Of a stretch of 64,000 nt of DNA, positions 4,168 to 22,472 are shown in pieces (within the stretch, counting starts at the first letter, position 1; every line of letters starts with the position of its first letter). The translations under genes were made by a program, and so were the position numbers. The stretch is from Candidatus Omnitrophota bacterium (lineage in GTDB: Bacteria; Omnitrophota; Gorgyraeia; Gygaellales; Profunditerraquicolaceae): contig JBAZTA010000002.1 of NCBI GenBank assembly GCA_041662125.1, forward strand, positions 396,154-460,153, written 5' to 3'. Under the pieces are notes generated by a model that was given only the letters and a program-made list of their open reading frames with translations, was not told the DNA's origin and ran no database searches.

Positions 4168-4806
4168 ATGCATGATGCAAAGAAATATATCCCTCAGGAA
4201 ACGGCAAAACGATTAAGTTTATATCTGCGAAGCCTGCGCAGGCTTGGCCAAGAGAAGGTCAGGATAGCTTCTTCGCAGGATATCACCCGTTTTTTGAATA
4301 TCTCTCCTGTCCAACTGAGGAAGGATCTATCGTATTTCGGCGAATTTGGCCGCAGAGGCGTTGGGTATGATGTTGATCTCCTCAAGGGTGAGATCGAAAA
4401 GATATTAGGGACGGATGTGGTTTGGAAGATAGCGCTCGTGGGAATAGGCCGGCTGGGGAGTGCGCTCTTGGGGTACAAGGGGTTCAGAGAATTTAATTTA
4501 CAGATTGAAGTTGCCTTTGATAACGATCCTGTGAAAATCGGAAAGAGCAGAGAAGGCATTAAGATCGAGAATATCGCGCGGATAAAAGAAACCATCGCTC
4601 AAAAAGGAATAAAGATCGCAATGCTTTCGGTTTCCGCGGTATCTGCTCAAAAGGTGAGCGAAGAATTAGTAACATGCGGCATAAAATCAATATTGAATTT
4701 CTCTCCGGTCAACCTGGCTTTGCCTTCGGATATTTATGTCTCGAACGTTGATATGGCGTCGGAATTGGAGAGCCTTGTCTATAAATTAAAAAGAGGGTTT
4801 TCGTAA
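4168..4806 (+). CDS. rex: Redox-sensing transcriptional repressor Rex (paralog 1)
   Basis: N-terminal winged-helix region (SLYLRSL...DLSYFGEFG) and Rossmann motif LVGIGRLGSALLGY. Length 212 aa. Confidence 0.85.
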   Translation: MHDAKKYIPQETAKRLSLYLRSLRRLGQEKVRIASSQDITRFLNISPVQLRKDLSYFGEFGRRGVGYDVDLLKGEIEKILGTDVVWKIALVGIGRLGSALLGYKGFREFNLQIEVAFDNDPVKIGKSREGIKIENIARIKETIAQKGIKIAMLSVSAVSAQKVSEELVTCGIKSILNFSPVNLALPSDIYVSNVDMASELESLVYKLKRGFS

Positions 4807-4807
4807 T

Positions 4808-5608
4808 ATGCATGTGATCTTAGAAAAACTCAATCTTGGCCCGAAAATCTATAGTATCACGGTGGATGTGCCGTTTATCGCCAAGAAAGCACAAGCCGGG
4901 CAGTTCGTGATGGTTAAGCTTCACGAAAAGGGGGAGCGCGTTCCTTTGACTATTTCTGATTATGACCGTGATAAAGGAACGATTACGATTGTTTTTCAGG
5001 ATGTCGGAAAGACTTCGGGATTATTGGCGTCAATGAATACAGGAGACCGTATCACCGATATCCTGGGCCCCCAGGGTAATCCTACTGAAATTGCATTGTT
5101 TGGGACTGTGATAGTGGTAGGCGGAGGTATTGGTGTTGCGCCGGTTTATCCCTTGGCGCAAGCCTTGCGTGAAAAAGGCAACTACGTAATATCAGCGCTG
5201 GGTTACCGCAGTAAGGAGCATGTTTTCTGGGAGGATAAATTGCGTTCTGTCTCTGATGAAGTATATCTTGCTACCAACGATGGATCTTATGGGAAGAAAG
5301 GTTTTGTTACTGATGCCCTTAAGGAAATCTTAGACGCTGGTAAGCATATCGATAGAGTGTTCGCCATCGGCCCGACAATAATGATGAAGGGGATAGTTGA
5401 TGTTGCGAAAAGAAAAAATATCCCGGTCGTCGTCAGCTTGAATTCGTTAATGGTCTGCGGTATGGGGATGTGCGGTGCTTGCCGCGTTACGATAGCAGGT
5501 AAGGTGCGGTTTACCTGTATGGATGGCCCTGATTTTGACGGCGCAGGGGTTGATTTTGAAGAATTAATGCAACGCTTAGATACCTATAAACATGAAGAAT
5601 CCCATTGA
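4808..5608 (+). CDS. nfnA: NfnA-like FAD/[2Fe-2S] oxidoreductase subunit (PyrK/SudB-like)
   Basis: PyrK-like FAD/NAD fold. C-terminal CGMGMCGACR 2Fe-2S motif. Sits immediately upstream of a GltD-like partner. Confidence 0.65.
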   Translation: MHVILEKLNLGPKIYSITVDVPFIAKKAQAGQFVMVKLHEKGERVPLTISDYDRDKGTITIVFQDVGKTSGLLASMNTGDRITDILGPQGNPTEIALFGTVIVVGGGIGVAPVYPLAQALREKGNYVISALGYRSKEHVFWEDKLRSVSDEVYLATNDGSYGKKGFVTDALKEILDAGKHIDRVFAIGPTIMMKGIVDVAKRKNIPVVVSLNSLMVCGMGMCGACRVTIAGKVRFTCMDGPDFDGAGVDFEELMQRLDTYKHEESH

Positions 5609-7010
5609 GAAAAAAACAGTTCCCATGCGCCAGTTGGAGGCTTCACAGAGAATAAAGAATTTCCAGGAGGTTCCGCTGGGATATTCTCAAGAAGAAGCAA
5701 TACGGGAAGCTTCCCGGTGCCTGCAATGCGTGACCCGTCCCTGTGTCAAAGGCTGTCCGGTTACCATCGATATCCCTGGTTTTATCAAGGCGATCAAAGA
5801 TGAAGATTTGCAGAAAGCTATCGATATTCTTCATGAGTCTGATACGTTACCGGCGGTAACCGGGAGGGTTTGCCCGCAAGAAGGGCAGTGCCAATTGACG
5901 TGCGTGCTCGCTCAAGCGGGGGAACCGATATCGATCGGGAGATTAGAACGGTTTGTTGCTGACTGGGATTTGCATAATCGTAAAAACCTCGCCGGCGTTG
6001 AGGTAGCTCAGCAAGGCCTCAAGGTCAAAAAGGTAGCGGTGGTTGGTTCCGGCCCCGCGGGCCTGGCGGCTGCTGCTGATTTGGCGAAAAAGGGCTATTC
6101 TGTTACGGTGTATGAAGGGTTTCATAAATTCGGCGGTGTTCTGGTCTACGGTATCCCTGAATTCCGTCTTCCGAAAGATATCGTAGCTTCTGAGATCGAG
6201 TTTTTGAAGGGATTAGGAGTTATTTTTACGGCTAATGTTTTAATCGGCAGGGCTCTGACGATCCCGGATTTATTTGCGCAAGGCAATGAAGCGGTTTTTA
6301 TCGCTGCGGGAGCGGGGTTACCGAAGTTCATGGGTATCCCGGGTGAAAACTTAAACGGCGTATATTCCGCGAATGAATTCTTGACCAGAGTAAATTTAAT
6401 GAAAGCGTATCAATTCCCTGAATATGATACGCCGGTTAAAAAAGGTGAGCAGGTCGCGGTTATCGGCGGTGGTAATGTTGCCGTTGATGCTGCCAGGACT
6501 GCGCTTCGCCTGGGTGCAAAGACCGTGTATTTGATTTATCGCCGCTCTGAAAAAGAGATGCCTGCCCGGGAAGAAGAAATCCTGCGCGCCAAAGAAGAAG
6601 GCATATCCTTTTGTCTTTTGACGAACCCGGTTTCCTATATCGGAGACAGCCGCGGGTTTATCAAGGCGGCCCAATGCGTTAAGATGGAATTAGGCCAGCC
6701 TGATGTCTCCGGAAGGGCAAGCCCCTATGCGATCCTGGGGTCGGAATTTATCATAGCAGTTGATGAGGTTATTGTTGCCGTCGGGGCAACGCCAAATCCG
6801 ATTCTCGCGCGCACGACTCCCGGTTTAAAGATCAAGCGTGCTGGGCAGATCGAAGTAGATGGATCAGGCAGGACATCGATGCCGGGTGTGTTTGCCGGAG
6901 GCGATATTGTGACGGGATCGGCTACGGTGATCACGGCAATGGGCGCCGGCAGGATCGCCGCGGCTGCCATCGATGAATACCTGAAAGGGAAATTGTGGCC
7001 GAGCATATAA
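5592..7010 (+). CDS. nfnB: NfnB-like / glutamate synthase small-subunit (GltD) family oxidoreductase
   Basis: Two N-terminal Cys clusters (CLQCVTRPCVKGCP). FAD/NAD(P) Rossmann motif VAVVGSGPAGLAAA. Length 472 aa. Confidence 0.7.
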   Translation: MKNPIEKKTVPMRQLEASQRIKNFQEVPLGYSQEEAIREASRCLQCVTRPCVKGCPVTIDIPGFIKAIKDEDLQKAIDILHESDTLPAVTGRVCPQEGQCQLTCVLAQAGEPISIGRLERFVADWDLHNRKNLAGVEVAQQGLKVKKVAVVGSGPAGLAAAADLAKKGYSVTVYEGFHKFGGVLVYGIPEFRLPKDIVASEIEFLKGLGVIFTANVLIGRALTIPDLFAQGNEAVFIAAGAGLPKFMGIPGENLNGVYSANEFLTRVNLMKAYQFPEYDTPVKKGEQVAVIGGGNVAVDAARTALRLGAKTVYLIYRRSEKEMPAREEEILRAKEEGISFCLLTNPVSYIGDSRGFIKAAQCVKMELGQPDVSGRASPYAILGSEFIIAVDEVIVAVGATPNPILARTTPGLKIKRAGQIEVDGSGRTSMPGVFAGGDIVTGSATVITAMGAGRIAAAAIDEYLKGKLWPSI

Positions 7011-8365
7011 TTGACGAAAAATATATTGAGGATACGCTTAAGAAGACAAGATCTCCTTCGAGTGAAACCATTGCCGGTATCCTTAGAAAAGCAAAATTAA
7101 AAAAAGGGCTTACCCTTGAAGAGGCCGGGTATTTGCTGAATGGTAGTCCTGCTTGTATGCAAGATATTTTTCTTGCCGCAGGAAAGGTCAAAAAAGAAAT
7201 ATACGGCGAGAGGCTGGTGTTTTTCGCGCCTTTGTATATTTCTGATTATTGCGTCAATGATTGTGATTATTGTAATTTTCATGCCCGTAATAAAGCCTTG
7301 CAGCGTAGAAAGCTTACCCTTGAAGAAATAGAAGAGCAGGTTAAATTTTTGATCAATATGGGCCATAAGCGTGTTTTGGTCGAGTTCGGGGAAGATCCTG
7401 AGCATAATGATATTGATTATGTGGTAAAAGCCATAGAGATGATATATTCGGTAAAGACGGACAAAGGAAGTATCCGTCGGATCAATGTGAATATCGCGGC
7501 TACCACGTTTGAGAATTATCAAAAGCTTAAAGCCGCTTCTATCGGTACGTATCAGCTTTTTCAGGAGACTTATCATCGGGCTACCTATGAAAAAGTCCAC
7601 CGCGGGCCAAAAGCTGATTACCTGCGTCAGATCACCGCTTATGACCGGGCGCTCGAAGCCGGCCTTGATGATATCGGCCTGGGGGTGCTTTTTGGTTTGT
7701 ATGATTGGCGTTTTGAGGTTTTAGCGCTTATCGCTCATTCCCAGTATTTGGATAAGAACTATAAGGTGGGTCCGCATACCATCTCTGTTCCGCGTTTTCA
7801 GCCTGCGCCTACAGCGCAAATGTCTAAAACCTATCAGGTCAGTGACGAGGATTTTTTGCAACTCATAGCAGTTTTGCGGCTGGCGGTCCCCTATACCGGG
7901 ATGATCATTTCAACACGGGAAAGTGCCCCAATCAGGCGCGCCGCTTTTAAGATCGGGATTTCACAGGCTTCTGCAGCATCCTGCACTACGATCGGCGGTT
8001 ACGGAAAAGGCCATGATCAACCGCAGTTTAAGATCCAGGATGAACGCCCTCTGGAAGAGGTAGTTGAGGATATTGTTAAAGAAGGTTACCTCCCGAGTTT
8101 TTGCACGGCCTGTTACCGTCTGGGCCGCACGGGGGAACATTTTATGGACATCTCTAAGGCAGGGAATATCCATAAATTCTGCCGGCCTAACGGCATCCTT
8201 ACGTTTGCTGAGTACTTGGAAGACTTTGCCGATAAACAACTATATGAAAAGGGCAGGAAAGTCATTGAGTTTTATATAAATCAAATACATGATCAGGCGT
8301 TGCGTGAAAGAACGCGCGCCTGCCTTGATGAAATCAGTAAAGGAAAGAGAGACGTGTATTTCTAA
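6995..8365 (+). CDS. hydG: [FeFe]-hydrogenase maturase HydG (radical SAM tyrosine lyase)
   Basis: CVNDCDYC radical-SAM motif. C-terminal CTAC-x22-C motif typical of HydG rather than ThiH. GTG start. Confidence 0.8.
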   Translation: MAEHIIDEKYIEDTLKKTRSPSSETIAGILRKAKLKKGLTLEEAGYLLNGSPACMQDIFLAAGKVKKEIYGERLVFFAPLYISDYCVNDCDYCNFHARNKALQRRKLTLEEIEEQVKFLINMGHKRVLVEFGEDPEHNDIDYVVKAIEMIYSVKTDKGSIRRINVNIAATTFENYQKLKAASIGTYQLFQETYHRATYEKVHRGPKADYLRQITAYDRALEAGLDDIGLGVLFGLYDWRFEVLALIAHSQYLDKNYKVGPHTISVPRFQPAPTAQMSKTYQVSDEDFLQLIAVLRLAVPYTGMIISTRESAPIRRAAFKIGISQASAASCTTIGGYGKGHDQPQFKIQDERPLEEVVEDIVKEGYLPSFCTACYRLGRTGEHFMDISKAGNIHKFCRPNGILTFAEYLEDFADKQLYEKGRKVIEFYINQIHDQALRERTRACLDEISKGKRDVYF

Positions 8366-9543
8366 TGTGTTACGCGATCCCGGGGAAGGTCCTGGATGTT
8401 GATAAGAAGATCATAACGGTTGATTATTTCGGCGAACATAAAAAAGCCAGAAATGAGTTTTACGAATTAACGCCGGGGGATTATGTATATGCTCAAGGCG
8501 GGTTTGTTGTGCAGAAGATCTCTGAGAGCGAGGCGATAGAAATTCTTAAAACCTGGGAAGAATTGTTTTTTAAATTGCAGGAGATCGATTCAGAATTAGT
8601 GCGTAATCCCAAGGGGTTATACCAGGTTGCCAATAATATCCGTCACAAAAATCACGGTAATTCCTGCTGTATCCATGGCATCTTAGAGTTTTCCAATTAT
8701 TGCAGGTGTAATTGCCTGTATTGCGGTATTCGAAAGGATTCTCCTGGGGTAACCCGTTACCGGATGAGTGTCGATGAGGTTGTTGATGCTGCTCGAAAAG
8801 CGGTTCATGCGTTAAAATTTAAAGCGCTTGTTTTGCAGTCGGGTGAAGATCTTTGGTATGACGAAAAGAAGCTGGCCAGGATCGTTAAGGAAATGAGGGA
8901 AAAAGCTCCTTGTTTAATAATTTTAAGTATTGGAGAAAGGGATTTAGAAACCTATAGGAAATTATACGACGCAGGGGCCCGCGGGGCGTTAATACGCTTT
9001 GAGACCAGTAATTCCGCTCTTTACAAAAAAATCAGGCCTGAGCATCGTTTAGAAGACCGTCTTGATCTGATCAGAAAATTAAAAGAGATCGGTTATATTG
9101 TCATGACCGGATTTCTTATCGGCTTACCGGGACAGACAGAAGAAGATATCCTGAAAGATATTGACGTAACCGACTCCCTGGGCCCTGATATGTTTTCTTT
9201 TGGGCCGTTTATTCCTCATCCGGACACTCCCCTTGCGCAATACCCCTCGCCTACTACAGAGACGGTTTTAAATACTATTGCTCACGCTCGTATTAAGAGC
9301 CCTCAGGCTAATATACTTGTTAATACTTCTTTTGAGACCCTGGACCGGGAAAACGCGGTCAGGCTTGGGCTGATGGCGGGAGCAAATTCTGTTATGATCA
9401 ATGTGACTCCACAAAAATACCGTAAATTGTATGATATTTATCCAAATCGTGCCGGCATAGATTTAGAGATGCATGAGAGGATCGATGCTATTGTAAAAAC
9501 GCTGCATGCTATTGGCCGTGCGCCGACGGATCTGGGGGTCTAA
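8365..9543 (+). CDS. hydE: HydE-family radical SAM maturase with N-terminal HypC/HupF-like domain (fusion)
   Basis: Residues 1-70 (MCYAIPGKV...VDYFG...GDYVYAQGGFV...EAIEIL) match the HypC signature MC(L/I)A(I/V)P. The remainder matches HydE (ILEFSNYCRCNCLYCGIRKD...LQSGED...GFLIGLPGQT...GPFIPHPDTPLA). Confidence 0.75.
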   Translation: MCYAIPGKVLDVDKKIITVDYFGEHKKARNEFYELTPGDYVYAQGGFVVQKISESEAIEILKTWEELFFKLQEIDSELVRNPKGLYQVANNIRHKNHGNSCCIHGILEFSNYCRCNCLYCGIRKDSPGVTRYRMSVDEVVDAARKAVHALKFKALVLQSGEDLWYDEKKLARIVKEMREKAPCLIILSIGERDLETYRKLYDAGARGALIRFETSNSALYKKIRPEHRLEDRLDLIRKLKEIGYIVMTGFLIGLPGQTEEDILKDIDVTDSLGPDMFSFGPFIPHPDTPLAQYPSPTTETVLNTIAHARIKSPQANILVNTSFETLDRENAVRLGLMAGANSVMINVTPQKYRKLYDIYPNRAGIDLEMHERIDAIVKTLHAIGRAPTDLGV

Positions 9544-10460
9544 TGAAGCTTTTGGTTACGGGGGCGACAGGGTTTATTGGCAGGTATCTTGTTGAGGCCT
9601 TGGTCAGGGAAAATCATGAAGTGTCCGCCCTGGCGAGAGAAACCAGTAAGGTTGATTTTTTGAAGCAGCAGGGGATTGATTGTATTACAGGGGATGTCAG
9701 CGTTGAAAGAAGCCTGCGGCCTGTCTTAGGGCGTAAGTTTGATGCTATTTTTCATTGCGCCGGGTATGTTCTCAACGATGATTGGAAGAAGCTTCACCGG
9801 ATCAATGTCGTTGGTACGGAAAATGTCTGCGCCTTGGGCCTTAAGCTTGGTGTTGAACGGCTGGTATATTTGAGTTCGGTGGCTGTGGTCAGCGGAAATG
9901 ATGTGAGCCCCTTGAAAGAAGATCTCCCGTATAGTGCGACAAACCTGTATGGGCTTTCTAAATTAGACGCTGAAAGTAAAGTAGTAGAGTTCCGGAAAAG
10001 AGGCTTACGCGTTGCGATTGTTCGCCCGTGTATGGTTTATGGGAGAGGTGAACCGCATGCTTTGAGTAAGATCCTTTTTTGCCTGAAACACCGTCTCCTG
10101 CCGCTGGTTGAACAGGGGAAAGCAAAATGGCATCTGGGTTACGTGGAGAATATCGTTGATGTTTTGCTTCTGGCGCTTAAGAAAGAAACAGCCCTGGCGG
10201 GAAGTTTTTTCGCCGCTGATGAAGAAATACTGACCGTAAAAGAAATTTTAGCTATTTTAAGCTCGAATATCAAAGGCCCGCCTCCTTTTTGTATCCCTTC
10301 CTGGATGACGCCAGCTATTCTTAAAATACCGTATATAGGCAAGAAAGCAAACTTTTTTATCAAAGACCGGATCTATGATCTAAGCAGGTTAAAGTCTTTG
10401 GGTTTCAAGGCTAGGTTTAATGCCCGCGAAGCGTTAGCACGCAGTGTCTCTTCTCCTTAA
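9543..10460 (+). CDS. NAD-dependent epimerase/dehydratase (SDR family)
   Basis: N-terminal GATGFIGRYL Rossmann motif. Length 305 aa. Substrate unknown. Confidence 0.65.
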   Translation: MKLLVTGATGFIGRYLVEALVRENHEVSALARETSKVDFLKQQGIDCITGDVSVERSLRPVLGRKFDAIFHCAGYVLNDDWKKLHRINVVGTENVCALGLKLGVERLVYLSSVAVVSGNDVSPLKEDLPYSATNLYGLSKLDAESKVVEFRKRGLRVAIVRPCMVYGRGEPHALSKILFCLKHRLLPLVEQGKAKWHLGYVENIVDVLLLALKKETALAGSFFAADEEILTVKEILAILSSNIKGPPPFCIPSWMTPAILKIPYIGKKANFFIKDRIYDLSRLKSLGFKARFNAREALARSVSSP

Positions 10461-10502
10461 TTCTTCTTAGTTCTCACCTGGCAAAAGTGTTGCAGAATTA
10501 AA

Positions 10503-10530
10503 TTGATAAGAATGACAAAGTTGTTATAAT
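10503..10530 (+). promoter_or_regulatory. Sigma70-like promoter upstream of the 730-aa radical SAM gene
   Basis: TTGATA, 16-nt spacer, TATAAT. Confidence 0.5.
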
Positions 10531-10587
10531 GATAACGGAAATAATGAAGGTTAATTTCGATACGTATCGTTAGCGAGGGTCGAGATA

Positions 10588-12780
10588 ATGAAACAGGTCT
10601 CCAGGGTTTCGCCAAAAGTTGCGGTGTTATTATTTAATACTGATGCGAAAAATGGGGTGTTTTGGGGGAACCTGTCTTTGTCTTTCTTTGCTGGACAGCT
10701 AAAATCGTTAAAGATTGACTACACGTTATTTGTTTTATTAATGAAACCGGCAGATATAAAGCAAAACCAGGAAACCATTAATAAATCTCTTAATCTTCTG
10801 GTGCGGGGAAAGTTTGATACTATCATCATGCATTCTTCATGGCTGCCGTGGCTGCCTCAAACGCTGCGTCAGAGAACGGGGGCTAAAGTTTTCTGCCTGG
10901 ATTATTCAGACAAACAGGATATCCCTGATCAGTTAAATCTTATGGGCTTGCCTCCGGTTCAAACAGTCCTGGCAGCTTTGTTGAATACAAAATTTGAGAG
11001 CATCCAAGAGGTTATAAAAAAATTTAAACGCCTCACAACGTTTAATCCTCAATTTAATTATACTTTCGTAGGCTTACCCCCGGGCAGTCAAACGCTGCCA
11101 AAACAGGAAAAAGTAGACGTTTCTCTTCGAGTTCCTTGTCCGTTCCATCAGGATGTTCGGCTTAATCCTCGGTTTAAAGGGATATGTTTTGACGAAGGGA
11201 TCAGTACGCAAGGTTGTTCTTATTGCGTCGCGGCAAAAGCATCGTTGAATCGCCCTATGGCAGAGGATAAGAAAAGAAAACAAATGGTTGAGCAGGTACG
11301 CTACCTGCAAAACCATCTTCCTTCCTTGAAAGAGATCGCAGTCGTTTATCCGGAGTTATATTTACGGGTGTTGCCCTGGATCATGCGCAATAGTAAAAGG
11401 TTGGGGATTAAACCGATTACTTTTTCCGGCCAATTCAGAGCTGCGGTATTAGCGCGGCATGAGTCGGATATCCGCGTATTGCTTAAGACAGCCCTTAAGA
11501 CCGGCTTTCGGTTTGAAATGTGCGTGGTTGGCTTGGAAAGTTTTTGCAACCAAGATTTGATGTTGTTTAACCGAGGTTCGGTCCGTGAAGTTAGACAGGC
11601 GGTTAAGGTCATTGAAAGGCTTCGGGACAGCTTTGATCCCGGTTTTTTTATGCCCGCCACCGTAGGAAGTTTTATCCTTTTTCATCCTTGGCAAACGGTT
11701 GCCGGTTTAAGGGAGAATATCCGTTCATTTTTGTCTGAGGGTATCCATGGTTTGTTCCCGAAATTAAACTTTAATGATATCCGCATCAATAAAGATGTGG
11801 CATTGTATAAATTGGCAGAAGCGCAAAATTGCCTTTCATCTCAGGCAGGGCGTAATATTAATGATATCCCTCTGGGGGGGTATTTTACTGAACATCCGTG
11901 GGTATTTAAAGATAAAAAAACAAAACACATCCATGCGCTTTATACCAGTCTTGCGCCTAAGGTCACGGAAAGAATAGGATTGCTTGAGGCTTTATGCGAT
12001 TATGCCGAGAAATCAAGACTTAATAGCGAATCCTCTGACGGGAAAAAGATCGTGCCTCTTTTGGAAGGCTTGTATAGTTTGTTATTACGCTATTACTGGC
12101 AGAAGGATTCTGAGGGAGTGCCGGTTTATGTTGGTGATACCTGTAATTCTTCCTGCCAATACTGTGTTTATGAGCATGCGCGGTTTATAAAAGGCAAACC
12201 TTTGGCTATAAAAAACGCACATGCTGCTTTTCTGAAAAATAAGCAAGTAGTGACGATCGCGGGGCGTGAACCTACGCTCCTGCCGTGGCTTATTCCGTTT
12301 ATCCGCGGGTTGAAAAAGAAAAACCCCCGGCGTATCCAGCTTGTTACTAACGCCAGAAGGTGTGTGTATCCTCACTATGCCGGATCTTTGCTCCGCGCGG
12401 GTGTTTCAGATTTTTTAATTAAATTTTTCTCCTGGCAGCCGAAGGTGCATGATCAGCTTACCCGCTGCCCGGGTTCTTTCCGTCAGTCAGTTGCTGGTAT
12501 CGGGGAATTGAAACGGTCGGCCCAAAGTTTGGCTATCCCTGTTCAAATCGCTCTTTTAGTTGTGGTTTCAGATGCAGTCATTAATGAATTACATGAAACA
12601 ATCCTTTTCGCGCAAAGAATAGGCGCTGATGAAGTGCGGTTTGTTTATCCCATGAGCGCGGTTAATCTTGCTGGTTTGAAAGATTCAGCACGAAAATTAG
12701 AAGCTATTTTAAGCCAGCGAAGGGACCCTCGTTTGTGCGTGGGCACTGATCCCCGGTTTAGTTTCTCTATGACTGTTTAG
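10588..12780 (+). CDS. Uncharacterised two-domain protein with C-terminal radical SAM domain
   Basis: C-terminal CNSSCQYC (CX3CX2C) motif followed by a GGEP-like TIAGREPTL. The N-terminal ~440 aa are cysteine-containing with no canonical motif. Own promoter upstream. Confidence 0.55.
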   Translation: MKQVSRVSPKVAVLLFNTDAKNGVFWGNLSLSFFAGQLKSLKIDYTLFVLLMKPADIKQNQETINKSLNLLVRGKFDTIIMHSSWLPWLPQTLRQRTGAKVFCLDYSDKQDIPDQLNLMGLPPVQTVLAALLNTKFESIQEVIKKFKRLTTFNPQFNYTFVGLPPGSQTLPKQEKVDVSLRVPCPFHQDVRLNPRFKGICFDEGISTQGCSYCVAAKASLNRPMAEDKKRKQMVEQVRYLQNHLPSLKEIAVVYPELYLRVLPWIMRNSKRLGIKPITFSGQFRAAVLARHESDIRVLLKTALKTGFRFEMCVVGLESFCNQDLMLFNRGSVREVRQAVKVIERLRDSFDPGFFMPATVGSFILFHPWQTVAGLRENIRSFLSEGIHGLFPKLNFNDIRINKDVALYKLAEAQNCLSSQAGRNINDIPLGGYFTEHPWVFKDKKTKHIHALYTSLAPKVTERIGLLEALCDYAEKSRLNSESSDGKKIVPLLEGLYSLLLRYYWQKDSEGVPVYVGDTCNSSCQYCVYEHARFIKGKPLAIKNAHAAFLKNKQVVTIAGREPTLLPWLIPFIRGLKKKNPRRIQLVTNARRCVYPHYAGSLLRAGVSDFLIKFFSWQPKVHDQLTRCPGSFRQSVAGIGELKRSAQSLAIPVQIALLVVVSDAVINELHETILFAQRIGADEVRFVYPMSAVNLAGLKDSARKLEAILSQRRDPRLCVGTDPRFSFSMTV

Positions 12781-13007: not shown

Positions 13008-13643
13008 ATGATTACCAATAAGAATTGTATTATCCGGTTATCGCGGTATAAAAATGCTTTATATCGTCTCAGAACTCTTGGGTTTATTAAAGTATTTTCT
13101 GATAATTTAGCTGATGCCATTGGTGTGATGCCTTCTCAGGTCCGGAAAGATTTCTCGATATTCGGTATTTCCGGAAATAAGCGGGGAGGCTATCAGGTTG
13201 ATGAGCTTATTGAGAAACTCAATAATATCTTAGGTAAGAATGAGATCCAAAAAGTTGTTATTGTTGGGGCAGGCAATATCGGCACCGCGCTCATGAAATA
13301 CAAAGGCTTTGAAAAAGAGGGAATAAAGCTCATGGCGGTCTTTGATATCGATTCTTTGAAATTCAATAAAACCGTAGATGTTCCGGTATTGCCATTGGAG
13401 CAGCTCCCTGATTTTATAAAAAAGAATAAGATCAGAATAGGGATCATTGCGGTTCCTGATATCGCCGCGCAGCAGATACTTGATAGTATGGTTTCTGCGG
13501 GTATTAAGGGGATCTTGAATTTTGCCCCTATACGGTTGCGCGGCCCGGCGGATTGCGTGATCAATAACGTGAACCTGGAGTTGGAGTTGGAAAATGTTAT
13601 TTATTTCGTTAACACGCAGGAGAAAGCAAAGGTTGAGGAATAG
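13008..13643 (+). CDS. rex: Redox-sensing transcriptional repressor Rex (paralog 2)
   Basis: Same architecture as paralog 1 (SRYKNALYRL...DFSIFG...VVIVGAGNIGTALMKY). Own promoter and candidate Rex box upstream. Confidence 0.75.
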   Translation: MITNKNCIIRLSRYKNALYRLRTLGFIKVFSDNLADAIGVMPSQVRKDFSIFGISGNKRGGYQVDELIEKLNNILGKNEIQKVVIVGAGNIGTALMKYKGFEKEGIKLMAVFDIDSLKFNKTVDVPVLPLEQLPDFIKKNKIRIGIIAVPDIAAQQILDSMVSAGIKGILNFAPIRLRGPADCVINNVNLELELENVIYFVNTQEKAKVEE

Positions 13644-13645: not shown

Positions 13646-14878
13646 ATGAAGACGACGCCTAAGTCATTGCGTTTGCAGATCGGTTTGTTTGGCCGGACCA
13701 ATGTGGGAAAATCAAGTTTTTTGAATCTCATCGCCGGCCAGGACGTTGCGATCACATCTGCTGTCCCCGGCACAACGACTGACGTCGTGGAAAAGGCCAT
13801 GGAACTTCTACCGCTTGGGCCGGTCGTGTTCTTAGATACCGCAGGGATCGACGATGCTTCTGTGTTGGGTGACCTGCGCGTTAAAAAGTCCCGGAAAATA
13901 TTTGACCGCGCTGATGTTATTGTCTTAATAGCTGAACCTGATGTGTGGGGCGAGTTTGAAGATAAGATCTGGGATGAGGCAGGGAAACGCTCGATCCCGG
14001 TAATTATCGTGGTCAATAAAGCTGATGTGTTGGCGCCTGCAGAAGAGTTTATAGAAGCGCTGCGAAAGAAGACTGATAGATTCTTTCTGTGTTCTAGTAT
14101 CGATTCCGCCCACCGGGATACCTATGTATTTGCTTTGAAAAAGAATCTTATTGAGGTTTGTCCTGCTGATTTCCTGAATCCGCCTCCTTTATTAAAAGAC
14201 CTCCTGCCTTCATGCGGACTGGCAATAATGATCATTCCTATTGATAAGGAAGCTCCGAAAGGAAGGCTTATTTTACCTCAGGCTCAAGCGATACGGGATG
14301 CCTTAGACGGCGATGCGGCGGCGTTGATAGTTAAGGAAAAAGAATACGCCCATACCTTGAGAAATTTGAAGAATCCGCCTGATATCGTTATGTGTGATTC
14401 CCAGGTTGTTGAGAAAATGGTTGCCGATACACCCGCAGGTATCAAATGCACCACGTTTTCGATTTTGTTCGCGCGGAATAAAGGCGATTTATTGGAAATG
14501 GTGAAAGCGATATCGGCCATTGATACGTTAAAGCCGGGTGATAAAATATTAATTGCCGAATCCTGCAGCCATCATGCTATTGAAGATGATATCGGCAGGG
14601 TCAAAATCCCCCGCTGGCTGGAAAAATATTTAGGATTTAAGGTGCATATCGATGTGTGTTCAGGCAGGGATTATCCGGATAATCTCAAGGAGTATAAGCT
14701 TATCGTGCATTGCGGCGGCTGTATGCTGACGCGCAGGGAGATGCTTTTTCGGATCAATAAAGCAAAAGCGGAGAATGTTCCGATAACCAATTACGGTATT
14801 TGTATCGCGTTTTTACAGGGAGTATTAGTTCGGGTGTTATCGCCGTTTCCGGCGTGTTTAGAGGTATTGCGAAAATGA
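13646..14878 (+). CDS. hydF: [FeFe]-hydrogenase maturation GTPase HydF
   Basis: GRTNVGKSSF P-loop and TTTD G2 motif. C-terminal CSHH...HCGGC FeS-binding motif characteristic of HydF. Confidence 0.8.
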   Translation: MKTTPKSLRLQIGLFGRTNVGKSSFLNLIAGQDVAITSAVPGTTTDVVEKAMELLPLGPVVFLDTAGIDDASVLGDLRVKKSRKIFDRADVIVLIAEPDVWGEFEDKIWDEAGKRSIPVIIVVNKADVLAPAEEFIEALRKKTDRFFLCSSIDSAHRDTYVFALKKNLIEVCPADFLNPPPLLKDLLPSCGLAIMIIPIDKEAPKGRLILPQAQAIRDALDGDAAALIVKEKEYAHTLRNLKNPPDIVMCDSQVVEKMVADTPAGIKCTTFSILFARNKGDLLEMVKAISAIDTLKPGDKILIAESCSHHAIEDDIGRVKIPRWLEKYLGFKVHIDVCSGRDYPDNLKEYKLIVHCGGCMLTRREMLFRINKAKAENVPITNYGICIAFLQGVLVRVLSPFPACLEVLRK

Positions 14879-17197: not shown

Positions 17198-17254
17198 CCC
17201 CTCGACCGAGCTCGGGGTGAATGAGGCATAAGCGCCAGAGGCATGCCTCATTCA
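17195..17254 (+). repeat. Two-hairpin element family C, copy 1 (between hndB and hndC)
   Basis: TAACCCCTCGACCGAGCTCGGGGTGAATGAGGCATAAGCGCCAGAGGCATGCCTCATTCA. 12-bp stem TGAATGAGGCAT/ATGCCTCATTCA with 13-nt loop. ~85% identical to 60982-61040. Confidence 0.65.
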
Positions 17255-17290
17255 AAGTCAAAAGGCAAAAGAGACGAAAGGTATAAGACA

Positions 17291-19078
17291 ATGAAACGCT
17301 ACACGATTACTTTATGCGACGGGCCCAGCTGTATGCACAAAAAATCAAAGGACCTGCAGGAAGCCATTGAGCGTGAGCTGGAAAAACACGGTATTTTAGA
17401 TAAGGTCAGCATCAATCTCTCCGGCTGCCTGGGGATGTGTCCCAAGGGACCGGTTATGATCATAAATCCGGGGTATACCATATACGGGAAAGTAAGTGTC
17501 GCCGACATTCCCCTGATCATTGAAGGGCATTTGCTGAAGAATAAACCGCTTGCTTCCCTGGTTATCGATGAAGACCATCTTTATAACCGTTTCTTTCGGG
17601 TATTCGGGGATATTAATTTTTTTGGTAAACAGATGAGGATCGCCTTGCGTAACTGCGGTATCATCGACCCTGAGAGTATTGATGATTATCTTTCTGTCAG
17701 AGGCTATGAAGCCCTGGCAAAAGTGTTGACTGACAGTAAACCTCTTGAAGTTATCGCGGAAGTCAAAAAATCAGGGCTGCGGGGCAGGGGCGGGGCTGGT
17801 TTCCCAACGGGACTTAAGTGGGATTTGACGGCGCGGGAAAAAAGCGATGAAAGATACGTCATCTGCAACGCTGATGAGGGGGACCCGGGAGCGTTCATGG
17901 ACCGCAGTATGATCGAGGGAGACCCGCATACTATTATCGAGGGGATGATCATCGGCGGTTACGCCATAGGTTCCGGCAAGGGTATTGTTTATATCAGGGC
18001 TGAATATCCGTTGGCGATCAAACGGTTGGAGAAGGCTATTGAGGTTGCCCGCCGGGAAGGGTTTTTAGGAGAGAATATTTTAGGTTCCGGTTTTTCGTTC
18101 GATATTGAAATACGCCTGGGCGCGGGCGCATTTGTCTGCGGTGAGGAAACAGCGCTCATACATTCAGTTGAAGGCCACCGTGGTATGCCCCGTCCGCGTC
18201 CGCCTTATCCGTCGGTCAGCGGCCTCTTTGGTAAACCTACCGTCATCAATAATGTGGAAACCTGGGCCAATATCCCGGTCATCATACTCGATGGAGCTTC
18301 CTGGTTTAGTTCAATAGGCACAGAAAAAAGTAAAGGCAGTAAAGTCTTTGCCCTCGCCGGTAAGATCAAGAATACCGGGCTTGTTGAGGTGCCGATGGGC
18401 ACGACGCTTCGCCAGATCATTTATGATATTGGCGGAGGTGTCCCGAATAATAAAAAATTCAAAGCCGTTCAGACCGGGGGCCCTTCAGGCGGATGTATCC
18501 CGGAGGAATACCTCGATACCAAGATCGATTATGAATCGCTCTTACAGGTAGGCTCTATCATGGGATCAGGCGGCATGATCGTTATCGATGAAGAATCATG
18601 CATGGTCAATATCGCCAAGTTTTTCCTTGAATTTACCCAGAATGAGTCCTGCGGGAAATGCACTCCCTGCAGGGAAGGCACTAAGCGCATGCTTGAGATC
18701 TTGACCCGTATTACCAAAGGCCACGGCGTTCCTGAAGATATCGAAAAATTGGAGCGATTAGGCACTATGATCAAGAAAGCGTCTCTGTGTGGTTTAGGGC
18801 AGTCAGCTCCGAATCCGGTCTTAAGCACGCTGCGCCATTTTCGCAAGGAATATGAGGACCATATCCATTCAAAACATTGTGTCGCCGGGGTTTGCCAGGC
18901 GATGTTAGTTTATGAGATCCTTGACACCTGTGTCGGCTGTACTGTTTGTAAGAAAAACTGCCCTGTTTCAGCGATTAGCGGCAGTCCTAAACTCAAGCAT
19001 GAGATCATTCAGGAGAAGTGTATTAAATGCGGATTATGTTTTAAAGTATGTAAATTTAACGCTGTTAAAAAAAGCTAA
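17291..19078 (+). CDS. NuoF-like flavoprotein subunit of [FeFe] hydrogenase (HndC/HydB)
   Basis: N-terminal thioredoxin-like 2Fe-2S domain. NuoF core (GLRGRGGAGFPTGLKW). SLBB domain. Two C-terminal 4Fe-4S motifs (CVGCTVCKKNCP, CIKCGLCFKVC). Confidence 0.8.
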   Translation: MKRYTITLCDGPSCMHKKSKDLQEAIERELEKHGILDKVSINLSGCLGMCPKGPVMIINPGYTIYGKVSVADIPLIIEGHLLKNKPLASLVIDEDHLYNRFFRVFGDINFFGKQMRIALRNCGIIDPESIDDYLSVRGYEALAKVLTDSKPLEVIAEVKKSGLRGRGGAGFPTGLKWDLTAREKSDERYVICNADEGDPGAFMDRSMIEGDPHTIIEGMIIGGYAIGSGKGIVYIRAEYPLAIKRLEKAIEVARREGFLGENILGSGFSFDIEIRLGAGAFVCGEETALIHSVEGHRGMPRPRPPYPSVSGLFGKPTVINNVETWANIPVIILDGASWFSSIGTEKSKGSKVFALAGKIKNTGLVEVPMGTTLRQIIYDIGGGVPNNKKFKAVQTGGPSGGCIPEEYLDTKIDYESLLQVGSIMGSGGMIVIDEESCMVNIAKFFLEFTQNESCGKCTPCREGTKRMLEILTRITKGHGVPEDIEKLERLGTMIKKASLCGLGQSAPNPVLSTLRHFRKEYEDHIHSKHCVAGVCQAMLVYEILDTCVGCTVCKKNCPVSAISGSPKLKHEIIQEKCIKCGLCFKVCKFNAVKKS

Positions 19079-19131
19079 CCCCTCTGTGTCTGCCAGGACG
19101 GGTGTTTGCCGAATGAAGGAGCCAAGAAATA

Positions 19132-20904
19132 ATGGAAAAGATAACCATTTATATTAACGCTAAACCCTATGCGGTTGAACCGGATCAAACGATCATGCAG
19201 GCGGCTGATAAGCTGGGGTTTAGAATCCCGCGGCTTTGTTATCATCCGCGGCTTTCTATTGAAGGAGCCTGCCGCGTTTGCATCGTGGAAGTTGAGGGGA
19301 TGCGTAATTACGTAGCCAGCTGTGCGTTTCCTGTCAGTGAGGGGATAAAGATCCATACTGATTCTCAGGAGATCCGTCGGGCGCGCAGGGATATCGTGGA
19401 GTTGATCCTGGATAACCATCCTGATGACTGCCATACCTGCGAGCGGGATAGTATTTGCGAACTCCAGCGCTTGGCGTATTCGATGGGGATCCGTAACCGG
19501 CATTTTAAAGGTGAGAAGAAACAGTATGAAAAAGATATTTCATCGGCTTCAGTTGTTCGCGACCCGAATAAATGTATTCTTTGCGGCAGGTGCGTTAGGA
19601 TTTGTTCTGAGGTGCAAAAGGCACATACTCTGGGGCAGGCTTACCGCGGGTTTAAGACCGTTGTCATGCCTGCATATGATATGCCTTTTAAAGAGAGTGT
19701 CTGTACTAACTGCGGGCAGTGTATTAACGTTTGCCCCACGGCGGCATTTGTCGAGAAAAACCATACCCAGGAAGTATTCTCGAAATTAGATGATAAGTCG
19801 ATCATTAAAGTCGCTCAAGTCGCTCCATCGGTGCGCGCGGCGATAGGCGAAGCTTTCGGGATCGAAGCGGGAAGGTCAATGGAACATGAATTAGTTGCCG
19901 CGCTTAAGCGCCTGGGGTTTGATTATGTTTTTGATACGCAGTTTTCAGCTGACTTGACGATCATGGAAGAGGCAAGTGAATTCCTGGAAAGAGTCCAGGG
20001 TAAGGGCAAGCTGCCGATGATCACTTCTTGTTCAAGCGCCTGGATGAAATGCCTGGAACAATTTTATCCTGATCTGATCGATAATGTTTCGACCTGTAAA
20101 TCTCCCATGTCAATGATGGGGGCTCTGATTAAGACGTACTTCGCGCAGAAAATCAAACAAGATCCAAAGAATATCCTGAATGTTGCGATCATGTGCTGTA
20201 CTGCCAAAAAATATGAAGCGGCGCGGCCGGAACTGATGGTTGACGGTATGCCGGGGACCGATATGGTGGTAACGACTAGAGAAATGGCCTGGATGATCAA
20301 GTCAGCCGGGATAGATCTCCTGCGTATCAAGGGCGAGAATTTTGATGAGCCTCTTGGGCTTTCTTCGGGTGCGGGCACTATTTTTGGCGCTACCGGCGGC
20401 GTCATGGAAGCCGCGATCAGGACTGCCTATGAATTGTATACGGGTGAAACGCTGCTTGATATTGAGATCAGCGATTTGCGCGGGTTAAAGGGGATTAAGG
20501 AAGGTAAAATCGTCTTAGACGGTAAGGAGATACGGGTTGCTGTTGCGCATGGCCTGGGGAATGCCTGTGACCTGCTTGACGTTGTCCGTCACGACCCCGA
20601 TAAATACCATTTTATCGAGATCATGGGGTGCCCCGGCGGATGTATCGGCGGAGGCGGCCAGCCGTATGCGGGTATTAATTCAATTCCTTTGGATGAAGAG
20701 TGCCTGAATAAAAGAGCTGAAGCGCTCTACAACATTGACCGGAATAAAACGATCCGCAGAAGCCATGAAAATCCTGATGTGCAGAGGATCTATAAAGAGT
20801 TTCTGGGCAGGCCGTTGAGCGCCCAGTCGCATAAACTTTTGCATACGCATTATAAAGCGAAAGAGCCTCAAGGCATAATCCCGAGAGAATTTACGGTTAA
20901 ATAA
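19132..20904 (+). CDS. hydA: [FeFe] hydrogenase catalytic subunit (HydA/HndD) with non-canonical H-cluster motifs
   Basis: NuoG-like N-terminal 2Fe-2S and 4Fe-4S domains. H-cluster L3 motif EIMGCPGGCIGGGGQP is canonical. L1 reads TSCSSAW (canonical TSCCPxW). L2 reads MCCTAKKYE (canonical MPCxxKxxE). Confidence 0.8.
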   Translation: MEKITIYINAKPYAVEPDQTIMQAADKLGFRIPRLCYHPRLSIEGACRVCIVEVEGMRNYVASCAFPVSEGIKIHTDSQEIRRARRDIVELILDNHPDDCHTCERDSICELQRLAYSMGIRNRHFKGEKKQYEKDISSASVVRDPNKCILCGRCVRICSEVQKAHTLGQAYRGFKTVVMPAYDMPFKESVCTNCGQCINVCPTAAFVEKNHTQEVFSKLDDKSIIKVAQVAPSVRAAIGEAFGIEAGRSMEHELVAALKRLGFDYVFDTQFSADLTIMEEASEFLERVQGKGKLPMITSCSSAWMKCLEQFYPDLIDNVSTCKSPMSMMGALIKTYFAQKIKQDPKNILNVAIMCCTAKKYEAARPELMVDGMPGTDMVVTTREMAWMIKSAGIDLLRIKGENFDEPLGLSSGAGTIFGATGGVMEAAIRTAYELYTGETLLDIEISDLRGLKGIKEGKIVLDGKEIRVAVAHGLGNACDLLDVVRHDPDKYHFIEIMGCPGGCIGGGGQPYAGINSIPLDEECLNKRAEALYNIDRNKTIRRSHENPDVQRIYKEFLGRPLSAQSHKLLHTHYKAKEPQGIIPREFTVK

Positions 20905-20917
20905 CGGAGGTAATGAT

Positions 20918-21418
20918 ATGTGTTCTGCCAATAACGGGAAACAGCTTGCATTAAGGGCATTTATGGATAACTGTAAAGAAAAAGCGCATCCTGAATCAAA
21001 CCTGATCTCCATATTGCACAAAGCGCAGGAATTGTATGGATATTTAAGTAAGGAAGTCATGGATGATGTGGCGACGCGGATGAATATTCCGACTGCCCAT
21101 ATTTGGGGAGTGGCGACATTTTACCATTATTTTAATCTTAAACCTAAAGGCAAGCATACGGTTTCCATTTGTTTGGGGACTGCTTGTTATGTAAAAGGCG
21201 CTGACCAGATTTTGGACGCGATCAGGGAGGAGTTAATGATCGATGTCGGCCAGACGAGTGAGGATGATTTATTTACCTTGCAGGAAGCCCGTTGTTTGGG
21301 GACCTGCGGGCTTGCCCCGGTGGTCATGATCGATGAAAAGATCTACGGTAACCTGACACCTAAGAAAACTATAGAGATATTGCAGGGATATAAAAAGGCC
21401 GCGGGAAAGTATGATTAA
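20918..21418 (+). CDS. NuoE-like [2Fe-2S] subunit of [FeFe] hydrogenase (HndA/HydC)
   Basis: CLGTACYVKG...CLGTCGLAP Cys pattern of the NuoE thioredoxin-like ferredoxin. GGAGG RBS. Confidence 0.75.
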   Translation: MCSANNGKQLALRAFMDNCKEKAHPESNLISILHKAQELYGYLSKEVMDDVATRMNIPTAHIWGVATFYHYFNLKPKGKHTVSICLGTACYVKGADQILDAIREELMIDVGQTSEDDLFTLQEARCLGTCGLAPVVMIDEKIYGNLTPKKTIEILQGYKKAAGKYD

Positions 21419-22472
21419 AACCGAAACAATATTACAGAGGATTTATAAAGCCGAAGACCCTCGCGCGGCGGATATCGAGTATTTATTATCGCGGGAATCT
21501 TCTGATGAGGTGGGGATGATCTTTCGTTTTGCCGACTCGGTTCGCCGTGCCCACGCAGGAGACGGGATCCTCGCGCGCGGGATTATTGAGTTTTCCAACT
21601 ATTGCGCGAATTCTTGCGCTTATTGCGGGCTTAACAGGAATAACAAAAGTTTAAAACGGTACCGGCTCAGCCATGATGAGATCTTCAAAAGTATTCTTAA
21701 GATGGTTTCCTTAGGGATAAAGACCGTGGTCTTGCAGTCAGGAGAAGATTTTAGTATGGAAGCACTCCTTTTAAAAGAAACTATTGAGGAGATAAAGGCG
21801 CGTTTTGATGTTGCTCTTACGCTTTCTGTTGGAGAAAGAAGTGCCCGCGATTACCGCCTCTGGCGTAAGGCAGGCGCGGACCGGTATTTGCTTAAGATCG
21901 AGACAACGAATCGAAGATTGTATGAATCGCTTCATGCGGGGATGAGTTTTCAGCAGAGGATAAACTGCCTCAAGGCGCTTCAGGATCTCGGCTATCAAAC
22001 CGGTTCAGGAGTAATCGTTGGTTTAAAGGGCCAGACACTCCGCATGCTCGCCGAGGATATCGTGTTTTTCAAGAAAAACAATTTTGATATGATCGGGATC
22101 GGCCCGTTTATTCCGCATCCGGCTACTAAACTCAAAAACCAGGCGCAGGCAGATGTGAGCCTGACGTTGAAAACACTGGCGCTTACCAGGATCGTTACTA
22201 AAAATGCGCATCTTCCCGCGACAACAGCGTTAGGCAGTATCGGGAAGAGGGATTTTAAGATCGACGGGCTTCGCGCGGGGGCAAACGTGATCATGCTTAA
22301 TTTTACTCCTCCAGAATACAGCAGATTATATGAAATATATCCCGGTAAAGGCAATCACGACGGATTGATCGCGTCATACGAATCGTATATGCGAGGCTTG
22401 AGCGAGGCTACGGGCAGGCCATTTGATTTCGCCCGGGGAGATTCTCTGGTGCAGGTGACCGACAACCGATAA
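21411..22472 (+). CDS. hydE: HydE-family radical SAM maturase (second paralog, no HypC-like extension)
   Basis: IIEFSNYCANSCAYCGLNRNNKSLKRYR matches the HydE radical-SAM region. LQSGED and GPFIPHPATKL motifs present. Closes the structural operon. Confidence 0.75.
   Translation: MIKTETILQRIYKAEDPRAADIEYLLSRESSDEVGMIFRFADSVRRAHAGDGILARGIIEFSNYCANSCAYCGLNRNNKSLKRYRLSHDEIFKSILKMVSLGIKTVVLQSGEDFSMEALLLKETIEEIKARFDVALTLSVGERSARDYRLWRKAGADRYLLKIETTNRRLYESLHAGMSFQQRINCLKALQDLGYQTGSGVIVGLKGQTLRMLAEDIVFFKKNNFDMIGIGPFIPHPATKLKNQAQADVSLTLKTLALTRIVTKNAHLPATTALGSIGKRDFKIDGLRAGANVIMLNFTPPEYSRLYEIYPGKGNHDGLIASYESYMRGLSEATGRPFDFARGDSLVQVTDNR

Follow-up and report, generated by a model that had tools for sequence, protein, structure and literature searches.

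Which of the two great classes of hydrogenases is served by a protein that joins a chaperone of the one to a maturation enzyme of the other? This question is raised by a gene at positions 8365 to 9543 (plus strand) of a 64-kb stretch of DNA from a Candidatus Omnitrophota bacterium (contig JBAZTA010000002.1; the whole stretch is called the window below). Its product consists of a HypC domain followed by a barrel of the type found in HydE, a radical S-adenosylmethionine (radical-SAM) enzyme. The [NiFe] and the [FeFe] hydrogenases are a textbook case of convergent evolution, and their maturation machineries, HypA to HypF for the former and HydE, HydF, and HydG for the latter, are thought to be unrelated and non-overlapping. 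HypC, a chaperone of the [NiFe] system, binds the Fe(CN)2CO group through Cys2 and brings it to the large subunit. Below, the barrel of the fusion protein is designated HydE2, and the HydG encoded directly upstream HydG2. The occurrence of the two genes in the place of hypC-hypD-hypE-hypF suggests an undescribed radical-SAM route to the CO- and CN-bearing iron of [NiFe] hydrogenases.

A genuine fusion of a HypC domain and a HydE-type barrel

The gene is a single unbroken open reading frame (ORF) of 392 codons that starts with ATG-TGT (MCYAIPGKV), and its start codon ATG overlaps the stop codon TAA of the upstream hydG (6995 to 8365) by one base, in agreement with the overlap reported in the original prediction. 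That prediction, which was made from the sequence alone, had assigned the N-terminus to the HypC/HupF family and the remainder to a HydE-type core that continues in frame, and profile searches on the translated ORF, the check that it had proposed, matched the models of both families. In Pfam, HupF_HypC (PF01455) covers residues 1–64 with model positions 1 to 65 of 65 (51.6 bits, gathering score 28.5), Radical_SAM covers residues 108–267 (81.3 bits), and BATS covers residues 282–362. The HypC model TIGR00074 reached 48.5 bits (cutoff 48) with residues 1–78 alone and 43.9 bits in the full-length protein. The NCBIfam model of HydE, TIGR03956, matched with model positions 27–330 at 265.4 bits, a marginal pass of the cutoff of 254.6. 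Over its whole length, the N-terminal domain can be aligned with HypC proteins of known structure (2z1c, E = 8.5e-13); the remainder of the fusion protein matches HydE of Thermotoga maritima (E = 4e-68). In the AlphaFold2 (AF2) model (predicted local distance difference test score, pLDDT, 93.2; predicted template modelling score, pTM, 0.92), an OB-type domain and a helix are followed by the barrel, and the pTM value implies a fixed arrangement of the HypC domain relative to the barrel.

The HypC domain comprises residues 1–78 (8365 to 8598, plus strand), as delimited by PF01455, the alignment with HypC structures of the PDB, and the AF2 secondary structure. The structure prediction that had been recommended for it yielded a five-stranded OB-type fold plus helix, with strands at residues 7–13, 16–21, 24–29, 40–44, and 47–52 and a helix at residues 54–78 (DSSP assignment, pLDDT about 90). 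The protein starts with Met-Cys in 115 of 120 homologs, and M1, C2, P6, and Q44 are invariant across 78 sequences. In HypC, the initiator Met is removed ahead of the Cys. The family resemblance is thus that of a complete HypC, HybG, or HupF protein (PF01455; 2z1c, 3vyr), with a match to the full profile, the Met-Cys2...Pro6 arrangement, the OB fold, and the C-terminal helix. The differences are that the domain is covalently tied to a radical-SAM enzyme and that the conserved His of HypC (H51 in Escherichia coli; the "VIVHTGF" motif in Thermococcus kodakarensis) is replaced by the clade-invariant Gln44. This His, together with C41 of HypD and C2 of HypC, is a possible ligand of the iron on the HypCD scaffold (2025 review, PMC12134894). 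In one tidy reading, the Cys/Cys/His ligand set of HypCD could have been re-created by Cys102 and His104 of the barrel, which are described below, and Cys2 of the HypC domain.

The same architecture was recovered from many other genomes. It is shared by more than 120 clusters of proteins (90% identity threshold) from independent assemblies, with identities of 59–100% to the query, and a search of metagenomes with the clade-specific peptide motif C[VI]HG[IV][ILV]EFS retrieved 495 confirmed fusion loci. Dereplication at 90% resulted in 88 fusion lineages, which were numbered with the prefix L. As deposited, most of the metagenome-assembled genomes (MAGs) are labelled Omnitrophota, and some Elusimicrobiota, Desantisbacteria, "Planctomycetales", or "Micrarchaeota". 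Conservation across independent assemblies excludes a frame artefact of the assembly at the junction; the HypC-HydE fusion is a real and widespread gene fusion.

The fusion is therefore common, and it has been annotated by machine, but it has not been interpreted. The database names of the proteins are "HydE", "radical SAM protein", "biotin synthase", and, once, "HypC", and many members of the clade are simply called "radical SAM protein" at NCBI. Because the proteins were deposited under such generic or misleading names, the architecture is "known" only to annotation pipelines. No published description of it was found, in line with the original prediction: in the searched literature that names both HypC and HydG, neither a HypC-HydE fusion nor a link between HydG and [NiFe] maturation appeared. 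A literature search for Omnitrophota together with hypD found no paper, and the papers on the metabolism of Omnitrophota contain no discussion of maturation.

The HydE2 barrel and its HydG2 partner

The HydE-type (beta-alpha)8 radical-SAM barrel (8665 to 9543, plus strand) superimposes on T. maritima HydE (TmHydE, 3cix) with a Foldseek TM score of 0.85 at 38% identity. In a column-wise comparison of 36 fused with 126 unfused HydE cores, 52 of the 68 HydE-conserved columns were retained in the fused cores, including the cluster cysteines and the equivalents of Met224 and Met291. The radical-SAM CX3CX2C motif (C113/C117/C120, encoded at 8701 to 8724, plus strand; C63/C67/C70 in TmHydE) is invariant. 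M276 and M344 of the fusion, which correspond to M224 and M291 of TmHydE, are conserved in 94% and 97% of the fused sequences, respectively. In HydE, these two residues have been tied by structural and computational work to the binding and relay of Fe(I)(CO)2CN species (PMC11826987; PMC10114646).

The changes are concentrated elsewhere. R54, which is present in 90% of the unfused HydE, is replaced by His in 100% of the fused cores (H104 in the fusion), and H52 is replaced by Cys, also in 100% (C102), preceded by a second near-invariant Cys (C101). The resulting Cys101-Cys102-Ile-His104 motif lies at the start of strand beta-1 (8665 to 8676, plus strand). In addition, T134 is replaced by Ile or Phe (I186), R155 by Gly or Ala (G207), and there are several further changes. 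Nearly all of the clade-specific changes are located in the first three residues of the barrel strands, that is, in the bottom chamber formed by their N-terminal ends. According to a review (PMC10114646), the bottom of HydE harbors the S3 site, in which an Fe(CO)2CN species has been seen and from which the product leaves toward HydF; one Thr and two Arg define it, and their mutation impairs maturation. We infer that R54, T134, and R155 are these S3 residues, with numbers that derive from the alignment and the barrel-strand topology and not from a structure. The putative Thr/Arg/Arg set, a mark of membership in HydE, is not kept in the fused clade.

A canonical, unfused HydE of 353 amino acids is encoded in the same window directly after hydC (21411 to 22472, plus strand; TIGR03956, 308.3 bits, model positions 3–339). 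It shares 34% identity with the barrel of the fusion and has Leu, Arg, Thr, and Arg at the positions aligned to residues 52, 54, 134, and 155 of TmHydE. The fusion is thus an extra paralog and not the sole HydE of the organism. In a neighbour-joining (NJ) tree of HydE cores that was built with the signature columns removed, 41 signature-bearing sequences fell into a clade of 42 leaves, and TmHydE as well as the canonical HydE of the window were placed outside of it. For 40 of the 41 signature sequences, the nearest neighbour in the full tree was likewise signature-bearing. Strict monophyly of the fused clade was recovered in 0 of 100 NJ bootstrap replicates, since the clade signature is also present in four ORFs that are truncated and in one protein that is genuinely without the fusion (P0141). 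Among the 50%-identity representatives, which were searched exhaustively, the top-scoring proteins were almost all HypC-fused. As judged from the sequences, the fused barrel is a HydE paralog clade distinct from canonical HydE. The original prediction had called the core canonical; this description had to be given up in view of the marginal TIGR03956 score, the divergence of the clade, and the canonical HydE 12 kb downstream.

Four relatives of HydE (P0176 and P0180, of about 440 amino acids, as well as P0146 and P0165) have other, non-HypC extensions of about 110–150 residues at their N-termini; those of P0176 and P0180 contain a common Cys-containing small domain.

The HydG2 gene directly upstream of the fusion (6995 to 8365, plus strand) encodes a full-length HydG of the fusion-partner lineage (TIGR03955, 537 bits, cutoff 312). 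HydG2 contains the radical-SAM CX3CX2C motif and the C-terminal CX2CX22C motif of the auxiliary cluster. Both motifs are present in 43 of 43 full-length partner HydGs, so that the partners should still be able to build the iron synthon. The identity of the HydG2 of the window is 57–70% to the other fusion partners and 51–57% to the HydG portions of triple fusions, and only 42–44% to the HydF-linked HydGs of Omnitrophota; on these values, HydG2 is a lineage separate from the HydF-linked HydGs of the same phylum. The triple fusions are P0122 (906 amino acids) and P0135 (881 amino acids), with the modules in the order HypC-HydE-HydG, and they are independent evidence that the three modules act together.

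A further protein, P0148 (803 amino acids), is a HydE-HydG fusion that lacks HypC. Like the HypC-HydE fusion, it couples consecutive steps of Fe-CO/CN assembly covalently, and P0122 and P0135 follow the same logic. The algal HydEF fusion likewise couples consecutive steps of Fe-CO/CN cofactor assembly. However, HydE-HydG and HydEF unite proteins of the [FeFe] pathway only, whereas HypC-HydE joins a [NiFe] chaperone to an [FeFe]-type enzyme. The Shewanella protein HydX, encoded by a small gene between hydG and hydE, was considered as a free HypC-like analogue and was discarded, as it has 23.9 kDa and is not HypC-like.

Genomic company of the fusion

To characterize the neighbourhood of the fusion in its 88 lineages, we analyzed flanks of up to 10 kb from 24 loci of species-representative genomes and 80 metagenome loci, together with a protein index. 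The ORFs in the flanks were called mechanically and were classified against the proteins of the window and the Hyp and Hyc proteins of E. coli. In 46 of the 88 lineages, no more than 400 bp separate HydG from the fusion. The upstream sequence extends over at least 8 kb in 33 lineages; HydG is encoded in 27 of these, and structural genes of [NiFe] hydrogenases or genes for nickel maturation occur in 22. HydF and canonical HydE within 10 kb were found in one of these 33 well-flanked lineages, which is that of the window itself, and a genuine HydA near the fusion was found in two lineages. "HydA" matches in two further lineages (L043 and L088; BLAST, 31–33% identity) were read as NuoG/HoxU-like subunits of group-3 [NiFe] hydrogenases and were not counted.

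The association with genes of [NiFe] maturation extends over many lineages: HycI is encoded near the fusion in 29, HypA in 13, and HypB in 4 of the 88, and curated models confirmed HypB, the maturation protease, and a HypA-like protein among the neighbours. One recurrent gene order is Mbh-type large subunit-Mrp-ferredoxin-(HycI)-(HypA)-HydG-fusion, in one case with a CbiMNQO transporter for nickel or cobalt behind it, and another is group-3 beta-gamma-small-large-HycI-(HypA)-(HydG)-fusion; fusion-HypA-HypB and HypB-fusion also occur. A group-3 [NiFe] cluster of the type present in the window directly precedes the fusion in seven lineages (L009, L019, L022, L023, L025, L054, and L102). In 18 of 19 neighbouring large subunits, the RxCGxC and DPCxxC motifs are intact and a C-terminal extension is present. 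Since their cofactor-binding motifs are intact, these subunits belong to genuine [NiFe] enzymes that need Fe(CN)2CO.

HypD, HypE, HypF, or a free HypC were found neither in the 934 kb of flanks from the 88 lineages nor in the 64-kb window with the E. coli proteins as queries. The same set of E. coli queries did detect the small and poorly conserved HypA (E about 1e-14) and HypB (E about 1e-50). A weak HypE-like match in the window (61126 to 62022) turned out to be ThiL (TIGR01379, 272 bits). The gene orders with HycI, HypA, and HypB, combined with the local lack of hypD-hypE-hypF, indicate that the fusion occupies the hypC slot of [NiFe] operons. This position beside hycI, hypA, and hypB is a further likeness to HypC; the difference is that hypD is adjacent in 0 of the 88 lineages.

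[FeFe] clusters of the same phylum have a different composition. Three Omnitrophota clusters that were found via HydF contain a TM1266-like gene, in two cases an ammonia-lyase-like gene, HydF, and HydG (488–498 amino acids), and in L112, whose contig extends beyond HydG, an unfused HydE follows (TIGR03956, 343 bits). None of these three HydF-anchored clusters contains a HypC domain. The TM1266-like small protein is encoded directly before hydF (L112, 8296–10017; L113, 8351–10008; L114, 8307–8576), and the aspartate-ammonia-lyase-like gene of two of the clusters is also located before hydF. Both neighbours are absent from hydF of the window, which is preceded by rex instead.

In the window, the genes for both types of hydrogenases are present on the plus strand. 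A Rex-type redox-sensing regulator (4168 to 4806; Put_DNA-bind_N and CoA_binding domains) is encoded upstream of two NfnAB-like genes, hydG2, and the fusion, which are followed by an epimerase gene and a gene for a radical-SAM protein of 730 amino acids. Then come a second rex copy (13008–13643) directly before hydF, hydF itself, genes for a histidine kinase and a small ferredoxin, hydB, hydA, hydC, hydE, and a response regulator gene, and, finally, a group-3-type [NiFe] hydrogenase with its maturation protease and the glycine-cleavage system. HydF, the GTPase scaffold of [FeFe] maturation, is encoded at 13646 to 14878 (TIGR03918, 522 bits; Pfam HydF domains). HydB (NuoF-like), HydA (group A6 model; NF040763, 830 bits), and HydC (NuoE-like) are encoded at 17243 to 21418. 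The [NiFe] genes (beta, gamma, small, and large subunits plus maturation endopeptidase) extend from 25247 to 29722; RICGIC and DPCISC motifs as well as a C-terminal extension are found in the large subunit, and it is probably this hydrogenase that the fusion serves in the organism.

HydF of the window is unusually conserved, with 68–74% identity to proteins labelled Eremiobacterota, Dehalococcoidia, Pseudomonadota, and Firmicutes. Such similarity suggests that the [FeFe] maturation genes have spread horizontally in recent times, unlike the phylum-restricted fusion module. With identities this high across many phyla, counts of HydF matches are uninformative about co-distribution with the fusion.

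Several other neighbours recur. Rex is encoded next to the fusion also in two other lineages (L017 and L019). The NfnA/NfnB-like pair (a DHOD-B-type FAD/NAD subunit and a GltD-like subunit; window 4808–7010) overlaps the start of hydG2, and the arrangement Rex-NfnAB-HydG is found again in L006 and L023 (546–2884), with a HydG of another lineage in L023 (46% identity). The NAD-dependent epimerase/dehydratase and the 730-amino-acid protein are encoded between the fusion and rex-hydF (9543–12780). The C-terminal half of the latter is a radical-SAM domain that is closest to HxsC-type maturases, far below the cutoff. This pair is conserved in the lineage of the window (L005, L006), and an epimerase gene follows the fusion in L098, too. 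A PIF1-like helicase with a C-terminal WYL domain is encoded between the [FeFe] and the [NiFe] clusters (23267–24835). Downstream of the [NiFe] protease, the region from 30005 to 36030 encodes GcvT, GcvH, GcvPA, GcvPB, a lipoate-protein ligase, and a lipoyl-synthase-like radical-SAM protein, and in L008 (13599–15143), GcvT and GcvH are again found, about 2.4 kb downstream of the fusion. The H-protein is known as a donor in the formation of the dithiomethylamine bridge during [FeFe] maturation, and the linkage to the glycine-cleavage system may therefore not be accidental.

In one lineage (L003, L004, L010), genes for a CbiM-PDGLE-CbiQ-CbiO transporter, of the ECF type for nickel or cobalt, are located directly downstream of the fusion (L003, 11185–13866). 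A CbiMNQO transporter at this position is consistent with an operon for the maturation of a nickel enzyme. In about five lineages, an E1-like adenylyltransferase of the ThiF/MoeB family is encoded directly upstream of HydG2 or between the protease and HydG2 (L011, 7577–8356; L069, 14063–14800; L073, 9046–9632); it may represent a sulfur-carrier or cysteine-supply step for the dangler iron of HydG. A radical-SAM/SPASM protein is encoded directly after HypB in fusion-HypA-HypB operons (L069, 12456–13523; L073, 3468–4463), and its best models are ACGX-system and NirJ2, both below the cutoff.

A possible route to the [NiFe] site and its alternatives

Tentatively, and with a probability that we place just short of even, HydG2 and HypC-HydE2 may form a dedicated [NiFe] maturation module that does the job of HypC, HypD, HypE, and HypF. 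In this module, HydG2 would cleave tyrosine, and its auxiliary cluster would be the site at which an Fe(Cys)(CO)x(CN)y synthon is assembled. The synthon would enter the conserved upper pocket of HydE2, where 5'-deoxyadenosyl-radical chemistry would remove the cysteine in a HydE-like manner. The conserved Met344/Met276 relay would take the remaining Fe-CO/CN fragment down to the bottom chamber. Because this chamber lacks the putative S3 Thr/Arg/Arg set and contains Cys101-Cys102-x-His104, the fragment would be held in mononuclear form instead of being dimerised and passed to HydF. Cys2 of the HypC domain would then take it over; this domain is tethered to the barrel immediately ahead of strand beta-1, the strand whose N-terminal end is at the bottom of the barrel. 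The HypC domain would dock on the apo large subunit and insert the iron, HypA and HypB would add nickel, and a HycI-type protease would complete the enzyme. In the genome of the window, the single HydG2 may also supply the canonical HydE/HydF/[FeFe] pathway. The original prediction had proposed a HypC-type Cys carrier that is coupled to HydG/HydE chemistry and hands a synthon from HydG to HydE. The coupling itself is corroborated by the proximity of HydG and by the triple fusions; for the direction of transfer, the evidence favours HydG to the barrel, and from there via the HypC domain to the [NiFe] large subunit.

The proposed module can be compared with the established systems. With HydE (3cix, 7o1o; TIGR03956) it shares the barrel, the CX3CX2C motif, Met224/Met291, and the adjacent HydG partner. 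The fusion differs by its N-terminal HypC domain, the Cys-Cys-x-His motif, the replaced putative S3 residues, its linkage mostly to [NiFe] genes and not to HydF/HydA genes, and its placement in another clade than the HydE of the window. With the HypC-HypD scaffold and HypE/HypF it would share the assembly of a CO/CN-bearing iron on a Cys-rich site together with Cys2 of HypC, followed by transfer. In the ligand parallel mentioned above, C102 and H104 of the barrel and C2 of the HypC domain would stand for HypD-C41, HypC-C2, and HypC-H51; HypD and the HydE2 barrel have no sequence relationship. Unlike HypCDEF, which draws on carbamoyl phosphate and an unknown CO source, the fusion route would obtain the diatomic ligands from tyrosine via HydG. 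An add-on enzyme that supplies CO is known in HypX, which decarbonylates formyl-tetrahydrofolate or formyl-CoA and works with HypCDEF under oxic conditions (PMC12134894). HydG2-HydE2 would resemble HypX in providing a diatomic ligand to HypC-bound iron, but fold and chemistry are unrelated.

A stronger version of the proposal dispenses with HypD, HypE, and HypF in the maturation of [NiFe] hydrogenases: in Omnitrophota and certain neighbouring lineages, a HydG paralog would produce CO and CN from tyrosine, a HydE-like barrel would process the iron synthon, and the HypC domain would deliver Fe(CN)2CO to the large subunit; this we regard as possible, though doubtful. Several points weigh against the dedicated module. 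The support consists of sequences, a predicted structure, and gene context of up to 10 kb on each side. HypD, HypE, and HypF could be encoded more than 10 kb away from the fusion, and HydA and HydF could be encoded elsewhere in most of the fusion-bearing genomes. The fusion adjoins [FeFe] genes in the lineage of the window and in L069, and hydrogenase genes are absent up to a distance of 10 kb in about one third of the well-flanked lineages. When the clade was redefined by its signature and the signature columns were removed, bootstrap support was still weak (12 of 60). The retention of M224 and M291, which are involved in Fe(I) handling and dimerisation, leaves room for a dimeric product. Finally, the known product of HydG is Fe(CO)2(CN), whereas the [NiFe] site contains Fe(CN)2(CO), so that an additional ligand exchange has to be assumed.

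This mismatch in stoichiometry, (CO)2(CN) versus (CO)(CN)2, would not arise if the fusion module served [NiFe] maturation alongside conventional HypD, HypE, and HypF encoded elsewhere in the genome, for example, if HydG2 and HydE2 gave only Fe-CO to the HypC domain and HypEF and HypD added the cyanides. The evidence from the [NiFe] context is identical for this explanation, and such a module could provide the anaerobic source of CO that is acknowledged to be missing from the Hyp pathway (PMC12134894). We nevertheless consider it unlikely: hypC normally adjoins hypD, and hypD, hypE, or hypF occur in the flanks of 0 of the 88 lineages, even where hypA and hypB are present. In addition, the HypC domain has lost the His that was named as a possible iron ligand of HypCD, and HypEF would be redundant, given that HydG produces both CN and CO.

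The original prediction had placed the fusion in the assembly of the [FeFe] H-cluster, where it would be the HydE of the pathway and its HypC domain would shuttle the HydG synthon to or within HydE. This placement is quite improbable. The window, in which hydF and hydBAC follow 4–12 kb downstream, already has a canonical HydE beside hydC, and the flanks of all other lineages contain neither HydF nor canonical HydE. The passed, if marginally, cutoff of TIGR03956 and the adjacency of HydG fit with an [FeFe] role, but the [FeFe] clusters of Omnitrophota use an unfused HydE and a different lineage of HydG. The residues on the side of complex B, M224 and M291, are conserved, whereas the putative S3 positions at the exit toward HydF are replaced. 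A genuine HydA is encoded near the fusion in L069; however, HypC is otherwise [NiFe]-specific, and the fusion sits among HycI, HypA, and HypB.

Very improbable is a lack of any direct role in hydrogenase maturation, with two neighbouring genes that were fused while retaining independent functions or with another cofactor that contains Fe-CO/CN or sulfur, an explanation for which the well-flanked lineages without hydrogenase genes, the molybdopterin oxidoreductase next to the fusion in L001, and the recurrent ThiF/MoeB-like and radical-SAM/SPASM genes could be adduced, but which is at odds with the conservation of the fusion over 88 lineages with an invariant Cys2, the coordinated clade-specific substitutions in both domains, the triple fusions with HydG, the confident and fixed interdomain geometry of the AF2 model, and the strong association with HycI, HypA, and HypB.

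There is thus a substantial chance that the fusion module marks a new maturation route. A 2025 review of [NiFe] maturation does not mention radical-SAM enzymes and names the anaerobic source of CO as the key open question (PMC12134894). A tyrosine-derived route of CO and CN to the [NiFe] site is open to direct testing. For annotation, the consequence is that automatic "HydE" and "HydG" calls in MAGs of Omnitrophota and related lineages should not be taken as evidence of [FeFe] maturation. If the route exists, the two genes would offer a compact alternative for the heterologous production of [NiFe] hydrogenases, and a HydE variant seemingly trapped at the mononuclear-iron stage would help to dissect the debated product of HydE. 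It would also reveal cross-talk, or a common ancestry of function, between the two maturation systems, and this hybrid system would be a natural solution to the problem of the CO ligand under anaerobic conditions.

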